Source: a virus. From it: a DNA stretch of 64,000 bases. The stretch spans positions 32,001-96,000 of the IMG/VR virus record IMGVR_UViG_3300033141_003544; one strand, written 5' to 3'. The notes under the pieces were generated by a model. That model had not been told where the DNA came from. It saw only the letters and a list, made by a program, of their open reading frames with translations, and searched no databases. Made by a program: the position numbers and the translations under genes. Below are positions 9,305 through 40,140 of this stretch, one piece after another. Every line of letters begins with the position of its first letter. Positions within the stretch are counted from its first letter, which is position 1.

Positions 9305-12300
9305 TCAAGATATAAGCTGTGGTTCATCCTTCCATCTATTACTTACAATACCTTCTACTGGTGTATATAAACCTGGTACTATTTCTTTTTCCATCTCTTC
9401 TTTTATAATTGCCATAAGCTCTTCTAGTTCCTCTTTGACTGCATTATGATAAATTGCATCATGCACCGAAAATAAAAATCTTGACTTAAAGTTTTTTTCT
9501 TTTATTCTTTTGTTAATTCTAATATTAGCTAGTTGTAATAAATCACTTCCCAATCCCTGAACTAATGAGTTAACAGCTTCTCTTTCTGCTTCCTTTATTA
9601 ATTTATTCCCGTCTTTTGTCAAAGGGTCAGCGTAAATATTAGGCAATCTTCTAATTCTACCCAATGGACTTACAACATATCCATTTTTATGAACAAAAGC
9701 TTTAACCATCTTTACCCATTTAGCTACACCTTTATAAGTGTTCCAAAAAGTATTTATACAGTGCTGAACTAATTCTTCATCTACTTTCTCATCTTCTGGG
9801 TCCAGTTTTTCATTTATACTTTTAGTTAATTCAGTAGCGCCTCCCAAATAGGTTGTCCCAAAATTAGTTGAATTATGTATTAATATACCGTTTGCTATAA
9901 AATGATGAAATTCATTATTAACCATTAAATCCCAAACTTCCTCTTCTTCTTTTATTTCTAATTTCTTTATTCTTTCTATTTTTGAACTCAGGTCAAAAAT
10001 ATTATTGACATTCCAGTCTCTAACTGATTGAAATTCTTTATTTATATTCATTATCTTCAGCATCTTATTAATTGAACTTAGAGAAATTATTAATCTCCAT
10101 TTTGTTTCTTTAACTTTTCTTAAATTTGAAAATACCCCCACAGATAATAATAGTTGTTGTAAACCTTTACAAAGGTTCTCTGAGCTAGAGCTGTAAACTA
10201 TACTTATTGTCTTATTACTAGTTTTCCGTTTTGTTGTGTGAATTGAACCATCTCCTTTAAACAGAGATCTAATAAACTTTATTTTATTATTATAACTACT
10301 TCTCATAATTATTTTAGGGATATCTTTTTTATTTGATTTAAGTTTAAAATCTAAAATTTCGGCAATCCATGTAGTAAACTGTTTGCTAAAAATGGAAGCT
10401 TTTTTGTAAACATGAGTAGGATAACTTTTATTTTTTACTCTTCCTATTTTTACTTCACCAAATTTTTCCAATAAAAGAACAATATCATCAAAATCTTTTG
10501 AAGAGTCGTCCACCCTTTGTCCTATAGTAATTCCATAAGGATTGGGTGTTATTTTTATTTGGCCTTCTGAAATAATCCAACCTAATAAACTAGATAGATC
10601 TCCAGTTAAATACTTGGGATAAGTTAATTTTTTATAACCGATGTCTTTTGGTTTTGGTAATTTTATTTTAGTAATAGATGTGTCATACCCTTCAATAGGT
10701 ACAAATAATCTATCTCCAATTTTAAGATCAGAAACTTTTTTTTCAATTATTTTATAATCCCTTTTTCTCGTAAACGGGGTTGTGGGGAGTTTATGATTCT
10801 CAGATAGTTTTAACTCTATACCGTTCTTCAAAACTATATTTATTATTTTTTTCTTTTCTTTTTGTTTTATTAAATAAACTTCAGGATTATCCCATAAGCC
10901 TAAATGATCTCCTGGTTTTATCTCTTCTATAGGTATTAATCCTTTTTCTAAAATAGGGATTAATTGTCCTCTTGGTAAGCATTTTGCAATTTTGCGTTGT
11001 CTCACTGTAACCATTTCAGGTTTAATTCTAAAAACCTCACAAGCCATTTTTATATGAAGGTCTTCGTTATCTTTGTAAGCCTTTAACATAACTGGGTCTT
11101 GAGAATACCAAGCAATGATCCTCAATTCTATCTGAGAATAATCATGTTCTAAAAAATAATTTCCAGAGTCTGCAATATATTGATGTCTTATTTCTTTTTC
11201 TCTGGGAATTGTATGGACAGGTACACCTCCTTCACGAACGGAAGGGGAGGCTAAACGGCCACTTACAGCCCCTGTCAGTTTCATATTGTAATGGATTCTC
11301 CCATCATCGTCTACAAAAGTTAATACAGGATTCAAATAAGTAGATATCATTTTTAATTTGTTTTTATACCTAACCGCATCTGCACATATTGGATATTTTG
11401 TAGCTAATAAATTTAATGTCTCTTTATCAGTTTTATATTGATTTGTTTTGGTTTTCCCTTTATGTGGAATACCCATTTTATCGAACAAAGCCTCACCCAA
11501 TTGTTTCCCAGAACCTATGTTAAATTCATAACCTACTTGTTTATAAATTTCTTGTGCTAACTCTTCTGCATCTTTTTCGTATTGTTTTATAACTTTTTTT
11601 GTTTGTTTTAGGTCTACACTTATGCCTTTTTGTTCTGCTTCTTTATAAATATTGTGCATGGGTAAATACAGGTCAATATATAAGTCCAACAGTTTTGGTT
11701 TTTTGTTTATCTCTTCCCATAGATCTCCAGCTAACCTAAAAGTTACATCTACATCACTACATCCATACTCTTTTAATAATGCTATAGGAGCTTTATAAAG
11801 TTGACCTTCTTCATCCTCTTTTTCAGACAAATGTTGCTTTATCTTATGACTATAGCCCCTTTTATCCTCATACCTTCTATCGGCTTGATTTTTAATTGAG
11901 TGTAGTCTATTTTCATCCAACAGATAATCTAACATGACTACATCCATAGTCAAATTTTCTATTTTACAATCCCAGTGGTATTCCATAAACTTAGAATCAA
12001 ATTTATAATTAGCACCTGCGACTTTTTTATTTGGATCAGATACTATTTCTCGTAAACTTCCTATAATATCTTCTTGATGTTCCCCCCAAAATTTATACAT
12101 AAAAAACTCTCCAATAATATAATCTTTCTTTTTCTTTATTACTCTTTCGATTTTCACATTATATTTCTCTAAATCTCTTTCTTTAAATAAATCTTCATCT
12201 ATATCTTTATTTATAAGCAATGGAATATAAATACCTTGTTTTTCTTCCCATGAAAAACTAATACCTATAATTTGATCTGTTCTATAATTCAAACCAGTAG

Positions 12301-12982
12301 TTTCAATATCTATTGCTAATTTCTCTTTTTTCTTTAAAATTTGAAATATTTCATCAAATTCTTCAATGGTTTTAATCAATCTATAGTCATATACTGTCTC
12401 ATTTGCAGCAATTGGAGTACCATCCATTATTCTTTTGACTTCTTTTAAATCAGATAGCCAAACAGTCTCTTCAGCTGGGTTTCTTAAAATATACGCAGGA
12501 TGGTATGTAGGAAGTATTGGAATTTTATAACCTTCACGAGTATATATATGACCTCTGATATTAGTAATTTTAGTTTTTCCTATTAAAACTTTCGAAGCTA
12601 CGTTTCCCAGAGGTATTATACATTTGAGGGAGTTAAGTGATATTAAATAATTTAAGATAGTATCAAAATTAGATTTGCAAGTTTTAATCTCTGTATTACC
12701 AGGAGTCGTATTACCAGGGAGTCTACAGCAACATACATTAAAAAATACACAATCCTGATCATCATCAATACCGATAGTCCTTAATTCTTTTCTTAGCCGT
12801 TGTCCCGACCTACCTTGAAAAACTTTACCTGTTCTCTCTTCTTCACCACCAGGAGCTTCTCCTATAAAGGCCAGTTTGGGTTTATCAAAATTTCCAGTAG
12901 CATTATAAGGATTATAGTGAGAGGGATCATACAAAGGACAAGATTTGCATTTGTCAAGAGGTAGTATTAGGTGGTTTTTCAC
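9305..12982 (-). CDS. polA: family A DNA polymerase with N-terminal family-4 uracil-DNA glycosylase domain, 3'-5' exonuclease and an intein
   Basis: UDG: CKSCPL, GEAPG, FQGRSG, YHPAYILRN; exonuclease: DIETTGL, YGCSD; polymerase motifs A DYSQIELR, B RKIAK^STNFG..Y, C VHDA. Confidence 0.95.
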   Translation of the reverse strand: MKNHLILPLDKCKSCPLYDPSHYNPYNATGNFDKPKLAFIGEAPGGEEERTGKVFQGRSGQRLRKELRTIGIDDDQDCVFFNVCCCRLPGNTTPGNTEIKTCKSNFDTILNYLISLNSLKCIIPLGNVASKVLIGKTKITNIRGHIYTREGYKIPILPTYHPAYILRNPAEETVWLSDLKEVKRIMDGTPIAANETVYDYRLIKTIEEFDEIFQILKKKEKLAIDIETTGLNYRTDQIIGISFSWEEKQGIYIPLLINKDIDEDLFKERDLEKYNVKIERVIKKKKDYIIGEFFMYKFWGEHQEDIIGSLREIVSDPNKKVAGANYKFDSKFMEYHWDCKIENLTMDVVMLDYLLDENRLHSIKNQADRRYEDKRGYSHKIKQHLSEKEDEEGQLYKAPIALLKEYGCSDVDVTFRLAGDLWEEINKKPKLLDLYIDLYLPMHNIYKEAEQKGISVDLKQTKKVIKQYEKDAEELAQEIYKQVGYEFNIGSGKQLGEALFDKMGIPHKGKTKTNQYKTDKETLNLLATKYPICADAVRYKNKLKMISTYLNPVLTFVDDDGRIHYNMKLTGAVSGRLASPSVREGGVPVHTIPREKEIRHQYIADSGNYFLEHDYSQIELRIIAWYSQDPVMLKAYKDNEDLHIKMACEVFRIKPEMVTVRQRKIAKCLPRGQLIPILEKGLIPIEEIKPGDHLGLWDNPEVYLIKQKEKKKIINIVLKNGIELKLSENHKLPTTPFTRKRDYKIIEKKVSDLKIGDRLFVPIEGYDTSITKIKLPKPKDIGYKKLTYPKYLTGDLSSLLGWIISEGQIKITPNPYGITIGQRVDDSSKDFDDIVLLLEKFGEVKIGRVKNKSYPTHVYKKASIFSKQFTTWIAEILDFKLKSNKKDIPKIIMRSSYNNKIKFIRSLFKGDGSIHTTKRKTSNKTISIVYSSSSENLCKGLQQLLLSVGVFSNLRKVKETKWRLIISLSSINKMLKIMNINKEFQSVRDWNVNNIFDLSSKIERIKKLEIKEEEEVWDLMVNNEFHHFIANGILIHNSTNFGTTYLGGATELTKSINEKLDPEDEKVDEELVQHCINTFWNTYKGVAKWVKMVKAFVHKNGYVVSPLGRIRRLPNIYADPLTKDGNKLIKEAEREAVNSLVQGLGSDLLQLANIRINKRIKEKNFKSRFLFSVHDAIYHNAVKEELEELMAIIKEEMEKEIVPGLYTPVEGIVSNRWKDEPQLIS
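9872..10981 (-). mobile_element. 370-aa cis intein with LAGLIDADG endonuclease in PolA motif B
   Basis: CLPRGQ start, SENH block B, LLGWIISEG and FIRSLFKGDG, ends FIANGILIHN followed by Ser. Confidence 0.93.
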
Positions 12983-13281: not shown

Positions 13282-13707
13282 TTATACTTTTTCTATTTTA
13301 ATATCTTTTAATGTTTTTACAAATAAATCTCTATCCCTTGATATATAATCTAATTTATAATAAATTTTCTTTACATTGGCTGCTATAAGTATTTTATAAC
13401 AATTGATACAAGGATTATGTGTAACATAACAAATTAATGTTTTATACCTTTTAGGTAAGTTTGCAACTGCTCCCGCTTCACTATGGATAGTCCTAATACA
13501 ATGGTTTGCATTGTGTTCTTCACTAAGTAAACAACCTACATCTTCACAATGTGGACTGCCTGATGGAGCTGAATTATAACCTACTGAAACGACTCGATTA
13601 TCTTCAGTAGTTAAAACACACCCTACTTTTAGTTTCCCACACGTACCACGTTCTTTTACTATTTCAGCCATTTTCATAAAATATTCTATTCTAGTTAAGC
13701 GGCCCAT
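13282..13707 (-). CDS. dCMP deaminase (intact copy)
   Basis: VGCV, GYN, HSE (normally HAE) and PCINC zinc motifs; ATG 13707 after GGAGG. Confidence 0.9.
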   Translation of the reverse strand: MGRLTRIEYFMKMAEIVKERGTCGKLKVGCVLTTEDNRVVSVGYNSAPSGSPHCEDVGCLLSEEHNANHCIRTIHSEAGAVANLPKRYKTLICYVTHNPCINCYKILIAANVKKIYYKLDYISRDRDLFVKTLKDIKIEKV

Positions 13708-14500
13708 AGACCCCTCCAAAAATTTTTCTTTTCCTATCCAATGAAATTGTTGAACCCTTATATAAATACACCATAAATTTCTCTACCTCGTTCATTGAAT
13801 TAACCCTATAACTATATAAAGGGTTTTTTCTTCCTTTTATTGAACAATTAACCCATCCAAAACCTACTATTTCTTTAATGAAATTCATAACTGATTCAGT
13901 TCCTGCAATAGATACTATCCCTCTTTTGTATTTATTAAGATGAATACAACCATCACCGTCGAAATACCCTCTTATCCAATGTCTAATCAAATCCATTGAA
14001 ACATTTTTTGGGGGCTCTAATACCAAAGACTTTCTTTCTAAAATACCTTTATTGATTAAATCATAATACATTTTATTTGAGCTTAACAGATATCTGTATC
14101 GATAGAAGACTTTACCGTTTAATTTTCTTGATCTCTTACGAGGTTCAAAATTGGCTTCAATTGCTTTTCCAAATTTCTTCAAATGTTTTAAATCTTTTTC
14201 AGCTAAACTTAAATTTATTCTCTTCCTTTTATATCTTGGAGGTGGTGTATATAAACTCCCATCTGCTGCAATCATTCCCAACCAATAAGCTTTTTCTTCA
14301 TTATCAATTGTTTCAAAATAATTTTCATTAAAGGATTTCCATTTACCTTTAGTAGGTAAATGAGATAAGTTATATTCTTTTATTCTTTTTGCAATAGCTT
14401 GTCGTTTCTTTAACCCAAATACCTTTGCTATTTCTTTTTGAGAATGTTTACCGTCTAATAGTTTTTTAAGTTCTTCTGAATTAACTTCTACTTTCTTCAT
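13691..14500 (-). mobile_element. free-standing LAGLIDADG homing endonuclease with N-terminal HTH
   Basis: AYWLGMIAADG and WIRGYFDGDG motifs. Confidence 0.9.
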
Positions 14501-17419: not shown

Positions 17420-19366
17420 CTAATATATTTCCTTATTCTTATAATCCTTTTTATATATATGTAAACTATTGCAAAAATAAGTTAAATCTCCAACTGTCAC
17501 TCCTATTTGTTTAGTTATATATTGTTGAAGTTTTATTGCTAATGCAATATCATTAGGAAAATGAGTAACAAAATCACAAGATCTCATTATATAGGACATG
17601 TGAAGTTTGTTCTCCCTTCTGAGAAACATATACCCCGTTGAACAGTTATGAACTGAAGCTCCTAATAAAGAATAACTTTCATCTTCTTCTACTTCTAAAT
17701 TATAAACCTTTATTGATTGAATATATTTTTTTACTTCTATTCCTTTTACTTTATAATAAGCTTTACCTTTATTAAAACTTACTGTATTAATATTATTGTT
17801 TTTCCAATTGCCTTTTATATGAGGAAGACCAGGATAACATAGTTCTTTTAAAGATCTATTGGATGTGGAGATACTATATGAAGAATGATAAAAATGTCTC
17901 CCCTCAATTGCATGTCCGGATCTAATAGGTATGAACTGTATACTATAACTCACATTATTTCTTAGCAGTATTAGGCCTAATTGCAAAATTAGATCTTTAG
18001 AACAAGAAGTAAAAGTTAAACGACCTGTTTTTCCTGTGGATTTTTTATTTTTTGTTACATACCCATCTCCTCTTGTATATCCTACAACAATTTGGAGTTG
18101 CTTTTTAGGAGGTAAATACATAAATGATTTTGGAATAGTTTTTGTGTGAGAGTGTGAACCTCCAAACAAATTCCAAAAAAGATGACCTACTATTTTAGAA
18201 GCATAAGTTATTCTATAATTATTACCATCCTCTTTCCAATTAAATTTAGGTTTTTTTAATCCAAACTTTTCTAACATTATTTTTGCTACATCTTCACCAT
18301 ATTTTTCTTCTCCTTTTGCAAAATAAAATTTTATTTGTGATTTCCCATCTCTACCTCCCGTTGCACAACCGTCTGCTAAAAAGTAACCTACTAACCGTAA
18401 AAAATCTTCATCTACTTGGATTATTTTAGGAATACTATGACAGTTCTTTTTATCAGCAGCTTTAATAGTTTTTGAACTTATCTCAATAAAATCTTCAGTG
18501 TTAATATAATCTGTTATATTTAAATATTTTATATCTTTTCTACTATTATTAAAGTTAAATTCTATATAATCTCCTTCTTTAATTTCAGAAGCACTTAACC
18601 ATTTTGATTTAACTTCACGAATATTCTTAGAGGTTATTTTTTCTTTAGAGGAATAAGTTAAAATAGGGTGGTCTTTTGTACAAATTATATCTTCCCCGCC
18701 ATATCTTTTTATTTTTATAAGTTCATTCGTTTCATTCTCAAAAATTTTATTGACTCTTTTAAATCTACCTTTATGTGTTAAAACTTTATCTCCTTCTTTA
18801 ATATTTTCAATATTTGTCCATTTAAAATCCCTTGTAATAATTTTTGTTTTAACTGGAAAGCATGGGATACGTTTTTTACCACCCATATTTTCTAAATCAA
18901 ATACATTATTGTGTATTTCTATTATTGCTTGTCTTGTATTTGGTCGATCATGTAATTCTTGTATAACTTTTGATAACTGGGGTTTTATTCTTTCATTGTA
19001 GGTATAACTGAATTTATTTTGACCTTTTTCATCTTGATGTAAAAACTCTTGCCAAACGTCCTTTCTTAAAGTCCAAGCCATACCTGGATTTACAAAATGT
19101 TGACTAACCCTTTCTTTGGCTTCAGCTTCTATCCATTCCATTGACAGACCTGCATTATATTCTTTATTAATATAATCTATCATTTCCTTGATTCTCTCTC
19201 CTGTTTTTAATATAAAACAAGTCCCTCTAATTTCTTTTGTATAATAATCCTCATCCCCTTCAATAATTTTATCTTGCATAGAATAACCTTTTACTTCAGT
19301 ACCCATTTCAATAAGGTTTCTTTCTTCCTCTTTTATCATTTGAAGAGTATCACTATATATTCTCAT
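17420..19366 (-). CDS. thymidylate synthase-fold protein 1 (dCMP-modifying type), intein-containing
   Basis: YTYNER, TRQAII, RIP^C, MRSCDFVTHFPND, SLHIY; about 242 aa after splicing. Confidence 0.85.
   Translation of the reverse strand: MRIYSDTLQMIKEEERNLIEMGTEVKGYSMQDKIIEGDEDYYTKEIRGTCFILKTGERIKEMIDYINKEYNAGLSMEWIEAEAKERVSQHFVNPGMAWTLRKDVWQEFLHQDEKGQNKFSYTYNERIKPQLSKVIQELHDRPNTRQAIIEIHNNVFDLENMGGKKRIPCFPVKTKIITRDFKWTNIENIKEGDKVLTHKGRFKRVNKIFENETNELIKIKRYGGEDIICTKDHPILTYSSKEKITSKNIREVKSKWLSASEIKEGDYIEFNFNNSRKDIKYLNITDYINTEDFIEISSKTIKAADKKNCHSIPKIIQVDEDFLRLVGYFLADGCATGGRDGKSQIKFYFAKGEEKYGEDVAKIMLEKFGLKKPKFNWKEDGNNYRITYASKIVGHLFWNLFGGSHSHTKTIPKSFMYLPPKKQLQIVVGYTRGDGYVTKNKKSTGKTGRLTFTSCSKDLILQLGLILLRNNVSYSIQFIPIRSGHAIEGRHFYHSSYSISTSNRSLKELCYPGLPHIKGNWKNNNINTVSFNKGKAYYKVKGIEVKKYIQSIKVYNLEVEEDESYSLLGASVHNCSTGYMFLRRENKLHMSYIMRSCDFVTHFPNDIALAIKLQQYITKQIGVTVGDLTYFCNSLHIYKKDYKNKEIY
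17645..18862 (-). mobile_element. 406-aa cis intein with LAGLIDADG endonuclease at the TS catalytic Cys
   Basis: CFPVKT start, TKDHP, LVGYFLADG and GYTRGDG, ends VYNLEV...SVHN followed by Cys. Confidence 0.93.
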
Positions 19367-30919: not shown

Positions 30920-31340
30920 CTTTCATTTCCTCTTTAGAGTTAATTATTTTATTTTGTTTTTCAGTATCTTTTTTCCAAAACTCTGCTTTATCTAATTGTT
31001 CTTGTATAGTATTAATAAAATCCCGTACATGTGCACCGTGACGAAAAATAAACTCTTCCTCATATGTTATTTCACCTTTGAATAGTACTATAAATGCATT
31101 TTTTATACGTCTCCATATGTCAACCCAACAATTGCTGTTCCCCCAAGGAGCAGGTCCTCTTACTTTAGTAAAGAATTCTAATGAATAATAGGGTTCTTCA
31201 ATTTTTATATCTTTTCCACTCCACCCACTATAATCTACCGAAAAAATTATACTATGATTATCACTTCCACACCTACAAGTAGTTTTAAATGTGGGAATAT
31301 CTTCATCATAATAAGCCATATTTTCAATATTTGTATTCAT
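30912..31340 (-). CDS. conserved phage hypothetical protein
   Basis: CRCGSDNH, WRRIKNAF..LF motifs. Confidence 0.6.
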   Translation of the reverse strand: MNTNIENMAYYDEDIPTFKTTCRCGSDNHSIIFSVDYSGWSGKDIKIEEPYYSLEFFTKVRGPAPWGNSNCWVDIWRRIKNAFIVLFKGEITYEEEFIFRHGAHVRDFINTIQEQLDKAEFWKKDTEKQNKIINSKEEMKDE

Positions 31341-32266
31341 TTTATTCCTCCAATTTTTTTTCCCTTCAAGAAACTTTTTAAATTATTTTCTGACTGATTA
31401 TCAATTATTTCTATATCAAAATTTAATCTTTCATATTCTTTTAATCTTTTTTTGCTCCATTTCTCTAATAGACCTCCGTCTATATCATAAAAGTCATATA
31501 TTATAGCTTCTTTTTTTCCTTTACATATTGTTAATACTCTTCCTGCTATTTGGATTGTTTTTTTGTCTTTTGCTTGACCAGAAGCATTGAACACACAATC
31601 CATAGCTGGTAAATCAACTCCCTCGTTCAAAAGTGTAGATATAAGGACTGGATTTTCTTTCGAACTAAAACTATCTAATATCCTTTTTCTTTCTTCTGAA
31701 TCTTTTGTATTTCCATATAGTGTAATAGCTTCTGGTATTAATTCTTCTAATACATTTCCTTGCTCCACAATCTCTGTGCAAGCAATTAAGATAGATTGCC
31801 CCCTTTTTAAAACATTTTGTATTGTACCCCGTAATATGGAATTCCTACGGGTGTTTCTAAAGATACCTTCAACCTTTGCTTGTCTTACATTTTTATAAGC
31901 TTTCGGATGATTCAGTTTATACATATACACTTTACCTTGAACAAGATAACCATCTTTAGTTAAATCTTCGACTGAAACAAAATCTATAACTCTTCCTGTA
32001 GCCATTTCTAATAGTTTTCTTTCATTACTATTTGGTGATCCAGGACTAGCGGTAAACCCAAATCTATAATAAGCATTTTCACAACGCATAGTTATTGTGA
32101 AATAAGAATTGTAAATATTTTTTTCACTAAAATTTATATGGTGACTGTTAGAAACTAAAACTCCATCAACAAAGAGGTTATGGTCTTTACCCCCTACAGT
32201 TATATCAAAAACCTCTTCTTCATCTTCTATTTCAATTGACTCTATTGTACCTTTTATTACTTGCAT
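31337..32266 (-). CDS. SF2 helicase C-terminal part preceded by a 40-aa C-intein (IntC)
   Basis: VFDITV...NLFVDGVLVSN^SHH; helicase motifs III GFTASP, V NEGVDLP, VI IQIAGRVL. Confidence 0.92.
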   Translation of the reverse strand: MQVIKGTIESIEIEDEEEVFDITVGGKDHNLFVDGVLVSNSHHINFSEKNIYNSYFTITMRCENAYYRFGFTASPGSPNSNERKLLEMATGRVIDFVSVEDLTKDGYLVQGKVYMYKLNHPKAYKNVRQAKVEGIFRNTRRNSILRGTIQNVLKRGQSILIACTEIVEQGNVLEELIPEAITLYGNTKDSEERKRILDSFSSKENPVLISTLLNEGVDLPAMDCVFNASGQAKDKKTIQIAGRVLTICKGKKEAIIYDFYDIDGGLLEKWSKKRLKEYERLNFDIEIIDNQSENNLKSFLKGKKIGGIK

Positions 32267-32939
32267 CCGTATAAGTTTTCCTTAATTTTAGTAATTGTTT
32301 AAACTTTTTATGTTTCCTATTCAAGCAAATAGTTGAACCCCTATATATTTCTTTACATATTAAATAAACTTGATTATTACCTCTAACCTGAAATCGGTAT
32401 ATTGCTTCATGATGTTTTTTTCTATGATATATATGAGAAAAATTCAAATTTAAACATTCATTAAAATAATCTCTAATAAATTCCAAAACTGTTTTAGTAC
32501 CTGTAACCCCAAAAATAAAATTAGGTCTTTCAGAATTTAAACCAAAACTTCCATCTCCATCAAAATAACCCCTTATCCAGTGCCTAATTAAATCTTTCTG
32601 AAGTATTGGGGGTTTTAAAATCAAAGATTTTGCCCCTCTAGGTATTCCATTATCTTCTAAATTTTTTGTAAACTGTTTTGAACATACTGTAATCCTTTTA
32701 CTATGAAATGTTTTATCCCCAATAACTTTTGTTCTAGTTTTAATAGGTCTATCAGTTTTAATATGACGTTTGAACTTTTCTAAGTGTTTCAAATCTTTTT
32801 CACTAAAATTCAAATATAGAGTGCCATTTTTAGAGATATGACCATCTGCTGCAATCATACCTAACCAATAAGCTTTCTTTTGAGTATTAATATTTTTAAA
32901 AAAATTAACATCTAAGGTATATCTTGTGTTTTTATGCAT
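32232..32939 (-). mobile_element. free-standing LAGLIDADG homing endonuclease between the split-intein halves
   Basis: AYWLGMIAADG and WIRGYFDGDG; ATG 32939 with AGGAG; different frame from the flanking ORFs. Confidence 0.9.
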
Positions 32940-33892
32940 GTTAAGTTGTCTCCTATTTTTAAATGTTTGGCTTTCACCCAATGATCATTTACCAAAATTT
33001 TATGATCACCTGAACATCTAATAATATAAGAGATGTTTTCATCACATGCAACCTTTATTTTATAGATCTTCTGTTTTTTTGGTTTCTTAACAATGTTTAT
33101 AATATTATTACCATAACACAAATTTATATCTTTGTCATAAGATATAATACATTCATTTTTGTAATTTAAATACAATTCCCCTAATGTTTTATATGAAAGA
33201 TCTGCCATCAGTATTTTAGCAGATGAGGGTAAACATTCATCAATTAAGATACATCTTATACTATCTAGAAATTTTTTACACTCTCCAGTATCTAATCTAT
33301 TTATCAAAGTTTGGACTGTAGCAACTGTTATTGGTTGAGGATCCCATAATCCGTTACCAATTATTCCTATATTTAAATCAAATAACCGACTCATCACATT
33401 ATGTATTTGTTTTAATAATGTCTTTTGATTAACTAATATTAATACACCATATCCAACTTCTCCAGCTATCATACCCATTATCAATGTTTTACCTGATCTT
33501 GTAGGGTGATATATAATTCCTCGGGTTACTTCAAAGGCCTCCTCAAAGGCTCTTTTTTGGTACCAACGAGGGTTCATTTTGATACCCTTTTCATTAAGAT
33601 ATGTGATGGGGATAGGTGAATTTTTTGGTTTACATCTTTTGTCCAAAAAATTTGGAGCATTTTTTGAATTTTTGAGAAGTTCCAAAATTTTTGGCGCTAG
33701 TCCTGATGGGAAATAAGAGGCTTTTCTATCAAAATATCTTTTTTTTATCATTCTTTTTTTAATATATTTCTTTTGAACATAATCCCATTTAAACTCAGGA
33801 AAGACTATTGAACAGACTTTTTCAATGGCTTCAAGTTGGGCCAGGTCAGGGTTTCGCACCTCTGTATATGAATTGTTAACAATTAAATCCAT
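32912..33892 (-). CDS. SF2 (UvsW/Res-III-like) helicase N-terminal part fused to a 107-aa N-intein (IntN)
   Basis: PRWYQ, PTRSGKT, VATVQT, LIDE^CLPSSAKILMAD...CSGDHKI..WVKAKHLKIGD then stop. Confidence 0.92.
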   Translation of the reverse strand: MDLIVNNSYTEVRNPDLAQLEAIEKVCSIVFPEFKWDYVQKKYIKKRMIKKRYFDRKASYFPSGLAPKILELLKNSKNAPNFLDKRCKPKNSPIPITYLNEKGIKMNPRWYQKRAFEEAFEVTRGIIYHPTRSGKTLIMGMIAGEVGYGVLILVNQKTLLKQIHNVMSRLFDLNIGIIGNGLWDPQPITVATVQTLINRLDTGECKKFLDSIRCILIDECLPSSAKILMADLSYKTLGELYLNYKNECIISYDKDINLCYGNNIINIVKKPKKQKIYKIKVACDENISYIIRCSGDHKILVNDHWVKAKHLKIGDNLTCIKTQDIP

Positions 33893-35733: not shown

Positions 35734-38187
35734 TTACTCCTCAAATATTTTTGGTTGTTCTCTATATACTGGTTTCATTGTGAAAGTTTCACCAATAAAT
35801 TCAAACTCGGCTATCACTCCGAAACCTGCTCTCCCACTATTCTGTTTTGCAATATTAACTTCACAAATATCCTCTAATATAGTACTATCATAATAAGACT
35901 CCCTGTACAATAACATAACCAACCTTGCCACCTCTTCAAAAGCTCCGCTGTCTTTTAAATCAACCAAAGTGGGTCTTTTATTCCTTCTTGCTTCGGCTCT
36001 TCTTTGAATTTGTACTACAAGACAAATATGTATATTTAACTCTTCCGCAATTTGTGATAATATACCCAATTTAGTTCCAACTGTAGTGGGTTTATCCTTT
36101 ACAACATTAACATCAGCTAACTTATCAAACAGGTCTATAAATACAATATCTAAACCAAATCTTCTTTTGATATATCTTAATTTATATTTTAAATCAGTAG
36201 TGGTTAAAGTTCTTGATACTATATAATGGTGATTCCAATACTTGTTAATGTAAACATTTGCATCATGTATCTTTTTTATTCTCCCATCTGTATTTGACCA
36301 CTCTTTAGATCTAACTATTTCCTTGAAAGGGATATTTGTAAGGCAAGAATCTGTACGATCCTGTTCAGTCTCTAAACTGTGTTCTGTATTAACTTCACAA
36401 ACTTTATAACCTCTATTACATAAATTTACAGTTAAATTCTTTCGAAAAGTAGAATTATGTGTAACTATAAAATCATCTGTTACATATAAATCGTCTTCTA
36501 CAGTAATACATTTGCATTCTTGTTCACCTACTGACTTGATATTTTTTATATACCATGGTTGTGGATTTTTATGGTTGTATTTTAAAAATAAACTCTTTTT
36601 TCTTTTACAAAATACTGGGATTAAATCTTTTGACAGTTTAAAGTTTATCCTATAACTAACTCTACCCTTTTTCTTCACTCCTTTTGAAATATAAGTTGGG
36701 ATACGAGTTTTATGAATAACAACAGAACCTCCTAACGATTTCACTAGAAATACAATGTCATCTAATAACAATTTTGAAACTGTTTCAAAATTAATATAAC
36801 AGTCTGATCCTCTTAAATTTTTTTCAGTTTCTTTAGTACGTATACAGCCATCTATATCTATCAAACCCCTAAGTAATTCCAGTCTGTCCTCTATTGAGGA
36901 TAAAATATAATCCTCAGGAATAAATTTGTCCCAATTATGTCTCCCTCTTAAACCTAAATCTTGTAACAATTTGTCTACTTTCGCTTCTCTCCCTTTTTCT
37001 CCTTTTTTTGTCTTCCCACAAAAATTAAAATGTGAAGTATTATTTTTTCTTTTTTCTTCTTTTAATTCATCTTCAACTGGCAACAGTAAATGAACCCTCT
37101 TTCCAATATCTATATCTTTTGTAGTAAAACCTATAGTATTACCTGATAAACAACTATTACCTAATAAAACACCTAAAATATAAGGGTGAATGAGTAAATT
37201 CCGTTTTTCAAATTCTATAGGTTTAACCTGGTCAATAGAGTGACTAAATCTAGGATAAACATTATTGACTTTAAGGGTTTCTAATATCTCTTTTAATGGT
37301 TTAACGGTTGGAGTTTTACCAATTCCTTCATTGTATCTTTTTTGTTTCCAACTCTTTCTTTTTTTATGATTTCTGGTAAGCCATAAATGATCCAACGTAC
37401 ATCTTGTTTTTAGACCTGTGGATAAAGTTATTTCAAAAATCTCCTTTTTATTTTGAGGGTGAATTGCTAATACCTTCTTAATTTTTCCATCCCCACCAAT
37501 AATTTTATCTCCAACATTAATTTCTCCCATAGTGGTCCAACCGTTTGGTGTTAATATTTTGCTATATAACGGTTGCGCTTTGGCCATCCCAGGTCTACCA
37601 GCAATAACAGATATATATTTTTTAGGGAAACCTTCACTTAATAGTTCATCTAAGTTTCTAAAACCAGACATTATGGGTTCAATTTCATCTCTTCTTTTCA
37701 GGATCTTTACTCTTTCCTCAAAAGCATCAACACCAGTGGAGATAACCGAAATATCTGACCTTATCAAGTTTAACTTATTTAAAAGTTTATCATTTTTATG
37801 TAGGACTTCTTGGGGATCAACCCCATCAACTATCTCCTTTTCAAATTTACTAAAATGAGTTAATAGTTCTCTACTTGAATAGTATTTTATCAGAGTATCT
37901 ATAGATTCTTGATATTCTTTCTGGGTTTTGAACCTATTTTCAATACATTCCTCTATAAACTCTGAGCTTACCTTTGAATTTAGATTTTTACTTTTCAAAA
38001 AATCAAAAAGCAACAAATTATTAACAGTTCTATTATTATCCAGTAAAAATATAAGACTCTGATATAAAATTCTTGTTCTTTGGTCACTAAATACTTCCGG
38101 TTTTAAGTTCACTAGAACTGTTGGAACTGACTCTTCTTTTATCAGAGCTCCGATAACTGCTTTTTCAACCTCTATATTATCTAAAAT
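35734..38187 (-). CDS. dnaB: DnaB-like replicative helicase with intein; probable ATT start
   Basis: N-terminal EVEKAVIGAL upstream of the track start; AGRPGMAK^S, FIDLF, VQIQR, RP.L.DLKDSGAFEE.A, IAKQ..G. Confidence 0.93.
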   Translation of the reverse strand: MLDNIEVEKAVIGALIKEESVPTVLVNLKPEVFSDQRTRILYQSLIFLLDNNRTVNNLLLFDFLKSKNLNSKVSSEFIEECIENRFKTQKEYQESIDTLIKYYSSRELLTHFSKFEKEIVDGVDPQEVLHKNDKLLNKLNLIRSDISVISTGVDAFEERVKILKRRDEIEPIMSGFRNLDELLSEGFPKKYISVIAGRPGMAKAQPLYSKILTPNGWTTMGEINVGDKIIGGDGKIKKVLAIHPQNKKEIFEITLSTGLKTRCTLDHLWLTRNHKKRKSWKQKRYNEGIGKTPTVKPLKEILETLKVNNVYPRFSHSIDQVKPIEFEKRNLLIHPYILGVLLGNSCLSGNTIGFTTKDIDIGKRVHLLLPVEDELKEEKRKNNTSHFNFCGKTKKGEKGREAKVDKLLQDLGLRGRHNWDKFIPEDYILSSIEDRLELLRGLIDIDGCIRTKETEKNLRGSDCYINFETVSKLLLDDIVFLVKSLGGSVVIHKTRIPTYISKGVKKKGRVSYRINFKLSKDLIPVFCKRKKSLFLKYNHKNPQPWYIKNIKSVGEQECKCITVEDDLYVTDDFIVTHNSTFRKNLTVNLCNRGYKVCEVNTEHSLETEQDRTDSCLTNIPFKEIVRSKEWSNTDGRIKKIHDANVYINKYWNHHYIVSRTLTTTDLKYKLRYIKRRFGLDIVFIDLFDKLADVNVVKDKPTTVGTKLGILSQIAEELNIHICLVVQIQRRAEARRNKRPTLVDLKDSGAFEEVARLVMLLYRESYYDSTILEDICEVNIAKQNSGRAGFGVIAEFEFIGETFTMKPVYREQPKIFEE
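36454..37578 (-). mobile_element. 375-aa class-3-type intein with LAGLIDADG domain in the DnaB P-loop
   Basis: Ala1 (AQPL), DHLW, CKCITV, IVTHN^S; LLRGLIDIDG. Confidence 0.9.
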
Positions 38188-38189
38188 AA

Positions 38190-38750
38190 TTACACCTCAA
38201 TCTTTTTCATCTTACTAATAAATTTAGCTATTGCAGTTCCCACATTCTCCTCAATTTCTCTTAAATTATTATCGGTGGTAATTATTAAGTGCTGTCCGTT
38301 ATAACGATCTTGAACTAACAAACTATATATAAGCCTACATTGAGAAGGAGATAGAGACAAACTACCAAGATCATTAAAAAGCACTATATCTGACAATGAA
38401 CTAGTCCATTGAAGATTTTCTAATTCCTCATTTTGAGAAAAATTGTTTAATGTAAAAGGAAAAGATGGAACTTGAATAATACATACCCTCTTTGTAATTT
38501 TACCTTTCTTTATTATCTGGTTTATAATCCATACCCCTGTTTCAAAAGCAGAGAAATAAGAAGTCTTACTCTCTTGATGTCTTTCGAATATAAAGAGTGA
38601 TTTTTCTTTGTTATTTGGAAATTGCTCTATATAGTCTTTTAAATATTCTAACACACCATCCGATAAATTACCAGGTTTTTTATCATCAACATTTATTTTT
38701 TTGTAGGTATTAAAAGGTACACCCCAAAGCAAAGCCGAATTAAGTTTCAT
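38190..38750 (-). CDS. degenerate DnaC/IstB-like helicase loader
   Basis: Lies between initiator and dnaB; VLFNDLG, DRY...LIITTD, IG..I.. pattern; Walker A not intact. Confidence 0.55.
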   Translation of the reverse strand: MKLNSALLWGVPFNTYKKINVDDKKPGNLSDGVLEYLKDYIEQFPNNKEKSLFIFERHQESKTSYFSAFETGVWIINQIIKKGKITKRVCIIQVPSFPFTLNNFSQNEELENLQWTSSLSDIVLFNDLGSLSLSPSQCRLIYSLLVQDRYNGQHLIITTDNNLREIEENVGTAIAKFISKMKKIEV

Positions 38751-39751
38751 CTGATAATCTCTTCTTGACTTATGATATTTGAATTTCTGTTAACATTTTT
38801 CTGTATTTGATATTTTGTCCAATGTCTTTCCATCATTGTAAAACTGTCTATCTTGTCTCTCCAAAATTTATTAGTTGTAAAATAAATGTAACCTTTTTCT
38901 ACATCAGAGGAACCATAAGAAGATACTAATCTTAAAGCGGACTGATAGTTCACAAAATCCCATGTCCTTGGAATTTTAACTCCTTTTTCATATAAATTCA
39001 TCTTCAAGTTATCTTTTAATTTTACAGCACTCAAACCTCTATTTCTTTTTATGGCTCTTTTAAGATGAAGTATTAAAGCTTTTCCTTTTGTTTCTTTATC
39101 AGTAGAACGTAATAAAGAACCTATAGAGAAATTATCTGTGTTTTCCTCGTGCGCGCGTGGTACGTATCCTTTAAGGGTATTAATCAAGATTTCTTGTTTT
39201 TTACTATTTTGTTTTTTATTATTTTGTTTTTTACTATTTTGTTTTTTATTATTTTGTTTTTTATTATTGACACTTAGTGTTTTCTCATTTTGCGGTTTTT
39301 TGTCTGTGTTTTCTTCTGTGTTTTTGATTGTATCTTTATACTGTGTTTCTGTGTTTTCTTCTGTGTTAATGGAGTTTTGTTGTTTGGTGTTGTTAGTGTT
39401 TTCTTCTGTGTTTTCGTTTTTTGTTTTTAATGTTTTCCACTCTGTGTTTTTGTCCATTATAAAATCAAAAGCGGTTTCGACGTCTTTTTGAAAAATATTA
39501 ATGTCTGTATAAGCTGAAAATAGGTCTTCAAGTGTCTCTTTTGGGTTGGGTGTTTTATTGTTTGCCATTTTCTCTAAAAGGTAAATTATAATGACTTTAT
39601 GAAGGATGTTGTAATCTTTAGAACATAATATTTTAAGATAATTAGAAGGTGATGTTTCTGAATTGTACTCAGGTTTCATAACTTTATCCTTTAATTTTTG
39701 TAAGTGACCGATTATAGCTTGGAAGGAGGTGAGTTTTGTATAATCGGTCAC
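38747..39751 (-). CDS. putative replication initiator with internal iterons
   Basis: Low-complexity middle encoded by DNA repeats; C-terminal FWRDKIDS..M..HW.K; upstream of loader and dnaB. Confidence 0.6.
   Translation of the reverse strand: MTDYTKLTSFQAIIGHLQKLKDKVMKPEYNSETSPSNYLKILCSKDYNILHKVIIIYLLEKMANNKTPNPKETLEDLFSAYTDINIFQKDVETAFDFIMDKNTEWKTLKTKNENTEENTNNTKQQNSINTEENTETQYKDTIKNTEENTDKKPQNEKTLSVNNKKQNNKKQNSKKQNNKKQNSKKQEILINTLKGYVPRAHEENTDNFSIGSLLRSTDKETKGKALILHLKRAIKRNRGLSAVKLKDNLKMNLYEKGVKIPRTWDFVNYQSALRLVSSYGSSDVEKGYIYFTTNKFWRDKIDSFTMMERHWTKYQIQKNVNRNSNIISQEEIIR
39135..39450. repeat. iteron array / candidate replication origin
   Basis: 5 x 15-bp TTGTTTTTTAYTATT (39194-39268), repeated TCTGTGTT including 3 x GTGTTTTCTTCTGTGTT, GC-rich GTGCGCGCGTG near 39150. 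Confidence 0.75.
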
Positions 39752-39948
39752 TTAGTCATTTTTGTTAATACAATAAAGTTGTTTTTTTGAAAATTATAAA
39801 ATAACATTAGATCTATTCATCTTCAGAATTTATATCTATAAATCTTTCAACTATAATTACTACAATTGAATATATAATAATTATTAAAGATGGGTCTATT
39901 TCAACTAAACTTTCCACAATTATACCTCAAAATTTTTATTTTATTGTT

Positions 39949-39977
39949 AATATAATACCGAAAGTTACCCATATCAA
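39949..39977 (-). promoter_or_regulatory. promoter TTGATA-17-TATATT
   Basis: Family match. Confidence 0.6.
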
Positions 39978-40140
39978 CTTTTTGGTATCATAAAGTTATT
40001 AACTGTATCCATAAACCTTGTGTTCAATCGAAGGTGTATCTCATTTTTAGGTCAATTTAAGGTATACATGGAAAGTTTTCGGTTTTTAATTCAACCCACT
40101 TAAAAGTTAACTTTTTTGTAAGTGATTATTTATTGTAAAT

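Follow-up and report, generated by a model that had tools for sequence, protein, structure and literature searches.

We analysed a window of 64,000 nucleotides (nt) of viral DNA (positions 32,001 to 96,000 of the IMG/VR record IMGVR_UViG_3300033141_003544), in which the gene of a superfamily 2 (SF2) helicase is interrupted inside its catalytic DExH box by the two halves of an intein. Three open reading frames (ORFs) on the minus strand cover positions 31337-33892, namely the N-terminal half of the helicase (ORF A), a LAGLIDADG homing endonuclease (ORF B) and the C-terminal half of the helicase (ORF C). Their features are listed below with the evidence for each; P0045 and P0046 are metagenomic homologues of the helicase without an intein, and pLDDT is the predicted local distance difference test score of an AlphaFold2 (AF2) model.

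33236..33892, minus strand: N-extein, helicase residues 1-219 (Pfam ResIII, PHROG_16, colinear with P0045 and P0046)
32912..33235, minus strand: N-intein, 107 residues and a TAG stop at 32914-32912 (TIGR01445, PF14890, AF2 pLDDT)
32950..32954, minus strand: AGGAG ribosome-binding site of the endonuclease gene, 10 nt upstream of its ATG
32232..32939, minus strand: ORF B, LAGLIDADG homing endonuclease, 235 residues (Pfam LAGLIDADG_3, PHROG_4645, PDB entry 2dch)
32279..32283, minus strand: AAGGA ribosome-binding site of the C-half, 12 nt upstream of its ATG
32147..32266, minus strand: C-intein, 40 residues (TIGR01443, AF2 pLDDT)
31337..32146, minus strand: C-extein, 269 residues and a stop (Pfam Helicase_C, PHROG_16, colinear with P0045 and P0046)

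ORF A (32912-33892, minus strand) encodes 326 residues. Its helicase part contains the Q-motif region, motif I (PTRSGKT, at residue 130) and, at residues 216-219, LIDE, the first half of motif II. Directly after LIDE comes Cys220 (TGT, 33235-33233), which is residue 1 of the N-intein; further landmarks of this intein half are CSGDH at residue 293, the segment WVKAKHLKIGD and the C-terminal ..QDIP that precedes the stop codon. ORF C (31337-32266, minus strand; 309 residues) begins with the 40 residues of the C-intein (MQVIK..VFDITV..GVLVSN), followed by SHHINF. The serine is residue +1 of the C-extein, the histidines complete motif II as DESH, and helicase motifs III-VI follow. ORFs A and C share one reading frame; ORF B lies in another and overlaps ORF A by 28 nt and ORF C by 35 nt. 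Across the endonuclease region, the frame of ORFs A and C contains 18 stop codons, which rules out a contiguous intein read in that frame. Since curated intein and helicase models match each part of the locus, the arrangement far exceeds what chance would give.

Both downstream ORFs have a ribosome-binding site and an ATG in line with the start usage of the whole genome, in which 42 of the 65 long ORFs show a Shine-Dalgarno-like motif at the same distance. The AGGAG of ORF B is built from the Gly-Asp codons (GGA GAC) of the ..LKIGD.. strand of the intein; this Gly-Asp pair is also kept in two related N-halves, P0011 and P0012. ORF B itself carries two LAGLIDADG motifs, YWLGMIAADGH (residues 24-34; 32838-32870) and WIRGYFDGDGS (residues 121-131; 32547-32579), with an acidic catalytic residue in each, as in monomeric enzymes of this family. 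It matches Pfam LAGLIDADG_3 (PF14528; 4.1e-10, in two stretches), PHROG_4645 (5e-48) and PDB entry 2dch (2.7e-09).

The helicase host and the intein halves

The N-extein matches Pfam ResIII (4.6e-12, residues 105-226) and PHROG_16 (1.2e-29), and the C-extein matches Pfam Helicase_C (5.4e-10) and, again, PHROG_16 (2.2e-36), a phage family common to the helicases of Herelleviridae. Joining residues 1-219 of ORF A to residues 41-309 of ORF C in silico gives a protein of 488 residues, in which motifs I, II and III-VI follow one another in the order of SF2 helicases, colinear with those of intact members of the family. From end to end it can be aligned with P0045 (484 residues; 50.5% identity over 471 residues, 2e-172) and with P0046 (492 residues; 48% identity). 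At the junction the alignment is gapless, LIDE|SHHINF standing against LLDE|THHINF and LLDE|AHHINF in P0045 and P0046. No second copy of the helicase was found in the contig. In a PDB search with P0045 the nearest solved structures, and the sole matches at E <= 0.001, were archaeal XPB/Rad25 proteins; the NCBIfam matches of the helicase to XPB and RadD are weak and far below the cut-offs. By homology, the host is a single-copy SF2 helicase (ResIII and Helicase_C domains, XPB/Rad25-like), cut between the DE and the xH of motif II.

A preliminary description of this DNA, made by a model from the sequence and its ORF list, had already given the ORF coordinates, the intein boundaries and both overlaps, which are exact to the base. 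Its proposal that LIDE and SHH are joined into a 488-residue helicase with a DESH motif agrees with the sum of the two exteins (219 + 269 = 488), and the LAGLIDADG gene that it placed in another frame between the halves is the one for which two motifs and matches to curated models were found. It had further named the layout a 'fractured gene'; the intein is indeed split at the usual endonuclease insertion site, with the order of parts that this term denotes. Its 'UvsW-type' label, on the other hand, is not supported: no UvsW structure appeared at E <= 0.001 in the PDB search described above.

A search of intein models placed both halves above the curated NCBIfam cut-offs. TIGR01445 (intein_Nterm) scores 25.0 bits (cut-off 24.5) over residues 220-301 of ORF A, and TIGR01443 (intein_Cterm) scores 19.1 bits (cut-off 15.6) over residues 18-41 of ORF C. 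Pfam PF14890 matches the N-intein at 8e-07 with a score of 29.4 against a cut-off of 35.8, a shortfall that is expected for half a domain. When searched alone against the PDB by phmmer, the N-intein gave no intein match. The residues expected of a class 1 intein are largely in place: the nucleophile of position 1 is Cys220, block B is SGDH (residues 294-297), and blocks F and G read VFDITV..HN..VLVSN|S, with the block F aspartate, the terminal asparagine and the +1 nucleophile present. Cys1 and the block B histidine are nearly invariant in an alignment of the query with 24 relatives. Assignment of the element as a class 1 intein split at the canonical endonuclease insertion site is thus supported by its sequence.

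The two halves carry opposite net charges, +6 for the basic N-intein and -8 for the acidic C-intein. For structure prediction with AF2, we placed both halves on one chain by reading through the frame of ORFs A and C with the stop codons read as glycine, and used an alignment of 25 rows. The pLDDT values are 83-97 for the N-intein and 91-97 for the C-intein, compared with 37-59 for the nonsense linker. The top PDB matches of the model in Foldseek are all inteins (a split NrdJ-1 fusion, PDB entry 8ubs; Ssp DnaB; Mtu RecA; Npu DnaE; gp41-1), with target-normalised template-modelling (TM) scores of 0.60-0.65 for the first three. The paired halves are therefore confidently predicted to adopt the HINT (Hedgehog/intein) fold.

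Conservation of the break and the proposed trans-splicing

Proteins identical to the N-half, the endonuclease and the C-half are recorded on two or three contigs of the Joint Genome Institute (JGI), 105-115 kb in length, the exact 235-residue product of the endonuclease gene being recorded on three. One of these contigs, a sister contig of 114,568 bp, encodes an N-half of the same length with the substitution L200V (P0037). Its C-half (P0044) has the same start and one substitution, and ends with ..SFLK after 301 residues rather than 309; the C-terminus of the helicase thus differs between strains. Among more distant relatives, the N-halves P0012 (325 residues, with an N-intein 48% identical) and P0011 (44%) stop at nearly the same point, within a few residues, P0011 with ..QIP in place of ..DIP. 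P0015 is represented by six variants from independent ENA and Logan assemblies, all of 656 residues and all ending in an N-intein. P0048, conversely, is a C-half that starts with a C-intein of 34 residues at the same intein position, ending in GVLVSN|S. Bacillus phage G and Pectobacterium phage Ymer, described below, likewise have the split. In the present assembly, three in-frame LAGLIDADG inteins and ORFs of up to 1412 residues are uninterrupted. Because the same three ORFs recur on three contigs, one of them with substitutions in both helicase halves, and because relatives that are 24-48% identical share the ends and starts, the break is not an assembly error. Comparison of these sequences indicates that it is genuine and conserved in diverged relatives.

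We also looked for an RNA-level explanation. Rfam finds no group I or group II intron model in the locus, which speaks against an endonuclease carried by such an intron, and no terminator-like site is present on the coding strand inside the locus. Further searches for relatives returned little: the locus had no blastn match in phage records, the N-half had no match in an IMG/VR scan, P0012 gave weak helicase matches and nothing else in the same database, and tblastn of P0012 against phages found no match.

Since a naturally split intein divides its gene, the helicase is very probably stitched together after translation. We consider it very likely that the locus is a genuine fractured gene of an AT-rich phage of about 105-115 kb, and that the helicase is rebuilt by protein trans-splicing. 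The three ORFs would probably be co-transcribed and each translated from its own start site. The basic N-intein of 107 residues and the acidic C-intein of 40 residues would then associate into the HINT fold, and splicing would proceed by an N-S acyl shift at Cys1, attack by Ser+1, cyclisation of the terminal asparagine and an O-N shift. The expected product is the 488-residue helicase, of about 56 kDa, with motif II restored as DESH and the junction ..LIDESHHINFSEK. The endonuclease, for its part, is predicted to maintain the mobility of the element through cleavage of alleles without it.

Several points weigh against this interpretation. The penultimate histidine of class 1 inteins is missing, block G having a serine at this position, and a serine also replaces the threonine of the TxxH pattern in block B. 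The AF2 model is an artificial read-through calculated on a shallow alignment. The three near-identical contigs may stem from related samples. P0011, P0012, P0015 and P0048 are known as proteins alone, and their halves may not be adjacent or may not carry the same endonuclease. Finally, trans-splicing itself is inferred from sequence.

The missing histidine also bears on the possibility that the two halves assemble non-covalently, the intein parts serving as dimerisation domains and no peptide bond being formed. There is a precedent in Aeromonas phage Aeh1, whose fragmented NrdA is reported to associate through interaction domains of mobile-element origin (PMC3045599), and the opposite charges of the two intein parts would drive association in either case. 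However, Cys1, the block B histidine, the block F aspartate, the terminal asparagine and Ser+1 are all kept, also in the relatives that are 24-48% identical, and an insertion of 147 residues would be hard to tolerate within the Walker B/DExH motif. Moreover, other inteins at this position that are contiguous (IMG/VR loci L013, L032, L035, L036, L040 and others) share the Ser-Asn ending; it is compatible with splicing because these inteins must splice in cis for the helicase to function. We regard a purely non-covalent assembly as quite improbable.

The locus could instead be decaying, the helicase being a pseudogene that invasion by the endonuclease gene has recently inactivated and that the phage can do without. 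Gene disruption by homing endonuclease genes is indeed seen in this genome, where a fragment of a dCMP deaminase gene adjoins a second LAGLIDADG gene (13691-14500, minus strand), and close relatives for a test of the ratio of nonsynonymous to synonymous substitutions (dN/dS) are lacking. Yet every motif is kept in both halves, which are about 50% identical to, and colinear with, intact homologues; both helicase ORFs have proper starts; and this is the sole copy of the helicase in the contig. Decay would also not preserve the same break point in lineages down to 24-30% identity, which makes this explanation very improbable. Most improbable of all is a contiguous canonical intein of about 370 residues whose two frame changes would be assembly indels or programmed ribosomal frameshifts: ORFs A and C do share a frame, and the N-intein, endonuclease and C-intein together approach the length of the 369-residue intein of Bacillus phage BSP15 at the same site, but the ORF boundaries are identical on three contigs including sequence variants, diverged relatives keep the positions of the stops and starts, elsewhere the assembly shows its long ORFs and three in-frame inteins uninterrupted, ORF B has its own AGGAG and ATG with an N-terminus like that of free-standing homologues and is dissimilar to the intein-embedded endonucleases of the genome, and read-through would require two opposite shifts.

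Relation to known split inteins and origin of the endonuclease

Fractured genes were described by Dassa, London, Stoddard, Schueler-Furman & Pietrokovski (2009; PMC2677866), with gp41-1, NrdJ-1 and IMPDH-1 among the examples. The locus described here shares with them the succession, on one strand, of an N-extein with its N-intein, a free-standing endonuclease gene and a C-intein with its C-extein. It also shares the phage or metagenomic origin and the split at the usual endonuclease site, and the model of that paper, in which an endonuclease gene invades an intein, fits it. The hosts in that study are gp41, IMPDH, DnaE, NrdA, NrdJ, ligase and terminase, and the endonucleases are Vsr-like or GIY-YIG enzymes; neither LAGLIDADG nor an SF2 helicase is mentioned. 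Here, by contrast, the host is an SF2 helicase and the LAGLIDADG gene overlaps both halves, whereas the endonuclease genes of the earlier set are preceded by a spacer of 27-51 nt. NrdHF and PolB were later added to the hosts of split inteins, and inteins in SF2 helicases as such were already known. The layout is a further example of the known fractured-gene arrangement, with a new host protein and a new endonuclease type.

The GenBank records of two cultured phages come close to this locus. In Pectobacterium phage Ymer (OP748252.2, CDS0043/0042/0041), an SF2 helicase is broken as DE|C..HN|C; its halves share a reading frame, and each is overlapped by an annotated LAGLIDADG homing endonuclease gene that lies in a different one. 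The three products are labelled hypothetical protein, homing endonuclease and DNA helicase. However, the Ymer helicase belongs to a different family (27% identity in the N part), and the intein differs in its Cys +1, its His-Asn ending and its longer halves (118 and up to 56 residues). A common origin of ORF B and the Ymer endonuclease was considered and set aside, BLASTP detecting no similarity between them. In Bacillus phage G (JN638751.1), gp221 and gp223 are the halves of a homologous helicase, 24-26% identical and split at the same DE|C site (locus L093, 3489-6121). The 323-residue gp221 ends in an N-intein that follows ..MFDE, and in gp223 an extension of about 100 residues precedes the matching C-intein, ..TLVHN|CHH; they are labelled merely gp221 and DNA helicase. 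Unlike the halves described here, those of phage G lie in different frames, end in His-Asn|Cys and are separated by an ORF of 73 residues (gp222) and a spacer, with no LAGLIDADG gene. They probably correspond to the half-length families PHROG 16259 and PHROG 9690, which both halves of the present helicase also match. Phages Nachito and LysYB1, examined as possible split members of PHROG 16259, have intact helicases.

Contiguous inteins occupy the identical DE/xH insertion point, with the same blocks, in Bacillus phage BSP15, Lactobacillus phage Lb338-1 and the IMG/VR loci L013 and L032-L076. The 'intein containing DNA helicase' of BSP15 has a 369-residue intein with an in-frame LAGLIDADG domain, and the helicase of Lb338-1 a mini-intein of 144 residues. 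Unlike the element described here, all of these are single ORFs that splice in cis, and their similarity to it is at the level of motifs alone. A LAGLIDADG endonuclease encoded out of frame, in an overlap between the two splicing lobes, is also known from the cyanobacterial dnaX intein, explained there by secondary invasion of a mini-intein (bioRxiv 10.64898/2026.09.14.751524), and from actinophages, in which out-of-frame endonucleases reside inside contiguous inteins (bioRxiv 10.1101/2025.01.02.630785). In these cases the intein frame stays open through the overlap and the intein is contiguous, whereas the 18 stop codons make the present one split.

The novelty claimed in the preliminary description was accordingly overstated. 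Phage SF2 helicases commonly carry inteins at precisely this DE|xH site, and undescribed split versions were already in GenBank, those of phages G and Ymer. No paper that describes a split intein in an SF2 helicase, including these two, was found in the literature searched.

As to its origin, ORF B is 38% identical (2e-41) to a free-standing LAGLIDADG paralogue in the window, the gene at 13691-14500 already mentioned. This paralogue has 269 residues and an N-terminal helix-turn-helix, and has a dCMP deaminase gene on one side and a deaminase fragment on the other. In contrast, ORF B shows no similarity at E <= 1 to any of the three endonucleases embedded in inteins of this genome, which leads us to reject an origin by frameshift of one of these. 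All 15 relatives of ORF B in IMG/VR (30-42% identical) stand between unrelated phage genes, none of them (0/15) flanked by intein halves, and the N-terminus of ORF B matches those of free-standing homologues. Invasion of an intein, as in the model of Dassa and colleagues, is favoured over a frameshifted resident domain because the relatives of ORF B are free-standing and it is dissimilar to the intein-embedded endonucleases. Most likely, to judge from these comparisons, a free-standing endonuclease gene invaded a mini-intein.

The halves are in one frame in this locus and in phage Ymer, and in different frames where another endonuclease or none stands between them (phage G and the loci L023 and L029). 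The shared frame would fit an earlier contiguous state such as that of the cyanobacterial dnaX intein, but two cases prove nothing. One might go further and see in this locus and those of the Ymer type snapshots of LAGLIDADG entry into inteins, by out-of-frame invasion of a mini-intein that first leaves the ORF open (as in cyanobacterial dnaX) and later closes it into a split intein with halves in the same frame; separately, the pair of halves might be a working trans-splicing tool without cross-reaction with DnaE-type split inteins. Taken together, these two suggestions are possible but doubtful.

The locus extends the host range of natural split inteins to an XPB/Rad25-like SF2 helicase of a phage, interrupted within the catalytic DExH box, and the endonuclease types of fractured genes to LAGLIDADG. 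With contiguous, mini and split alleles at one site, it offers a compact series for following how endonucleases and inteins combine. The halves make a candidate ligation pair of standard size (107 + 40 residues) with Cys1, Ser+1 and the native junction ..IDE/SHH... Such loci are at present labelled as two unrelated 'helicase' or 'hypothetical' genes, as in phage G, Ymer, PHROG 16259 and PHROG 9690.

Other inteins and further observations

Four inteins are present in this phage, and that of the SF2 helicase alone is split. The other three (35734-37671, 9305-12427 and 17420-19366, minus strand) are contiguous with in-frame LAGLIDADG domains, and their hosts are a DnaB-like helicase, a family A DNA polymerase and a thymidylate-synthase-like gene.

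Further intein-split genes were encountered in the comparison sets. In the IMG/VR loci L025 (2418-5978) and L026 (98-2224), a phage NrdA is apparently encoded in three ORFs by way of two split inteins: the first piece ends in an N-intein, the second starts with a C-intein and ends in an N-intein, and the third starts with a C-intein about 30 nt past the preceding stop, the frame being unchanged and no gene for an endonuclease present. Another fractured NrdA, in the metagenome contig JACCDS011970808.1 (L023, 2999-6678), has a gene for an HNH-like endonuclease of 279 residues between its intein halves. A terminase large subunit in IMG/VR (L029, 1-2342) is intein-split with an ORF of 104 residues between the halves, and P0020 (Logan, 183 residues) is a gyrase/topoisomerase-like N-terminal fragment that ends in a related split N-intein. 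Lastly, the GC and AT skews of the window change sign near 40 kb (about 38000-40000), which fits a switch of coding strand between divergent gene blocks.

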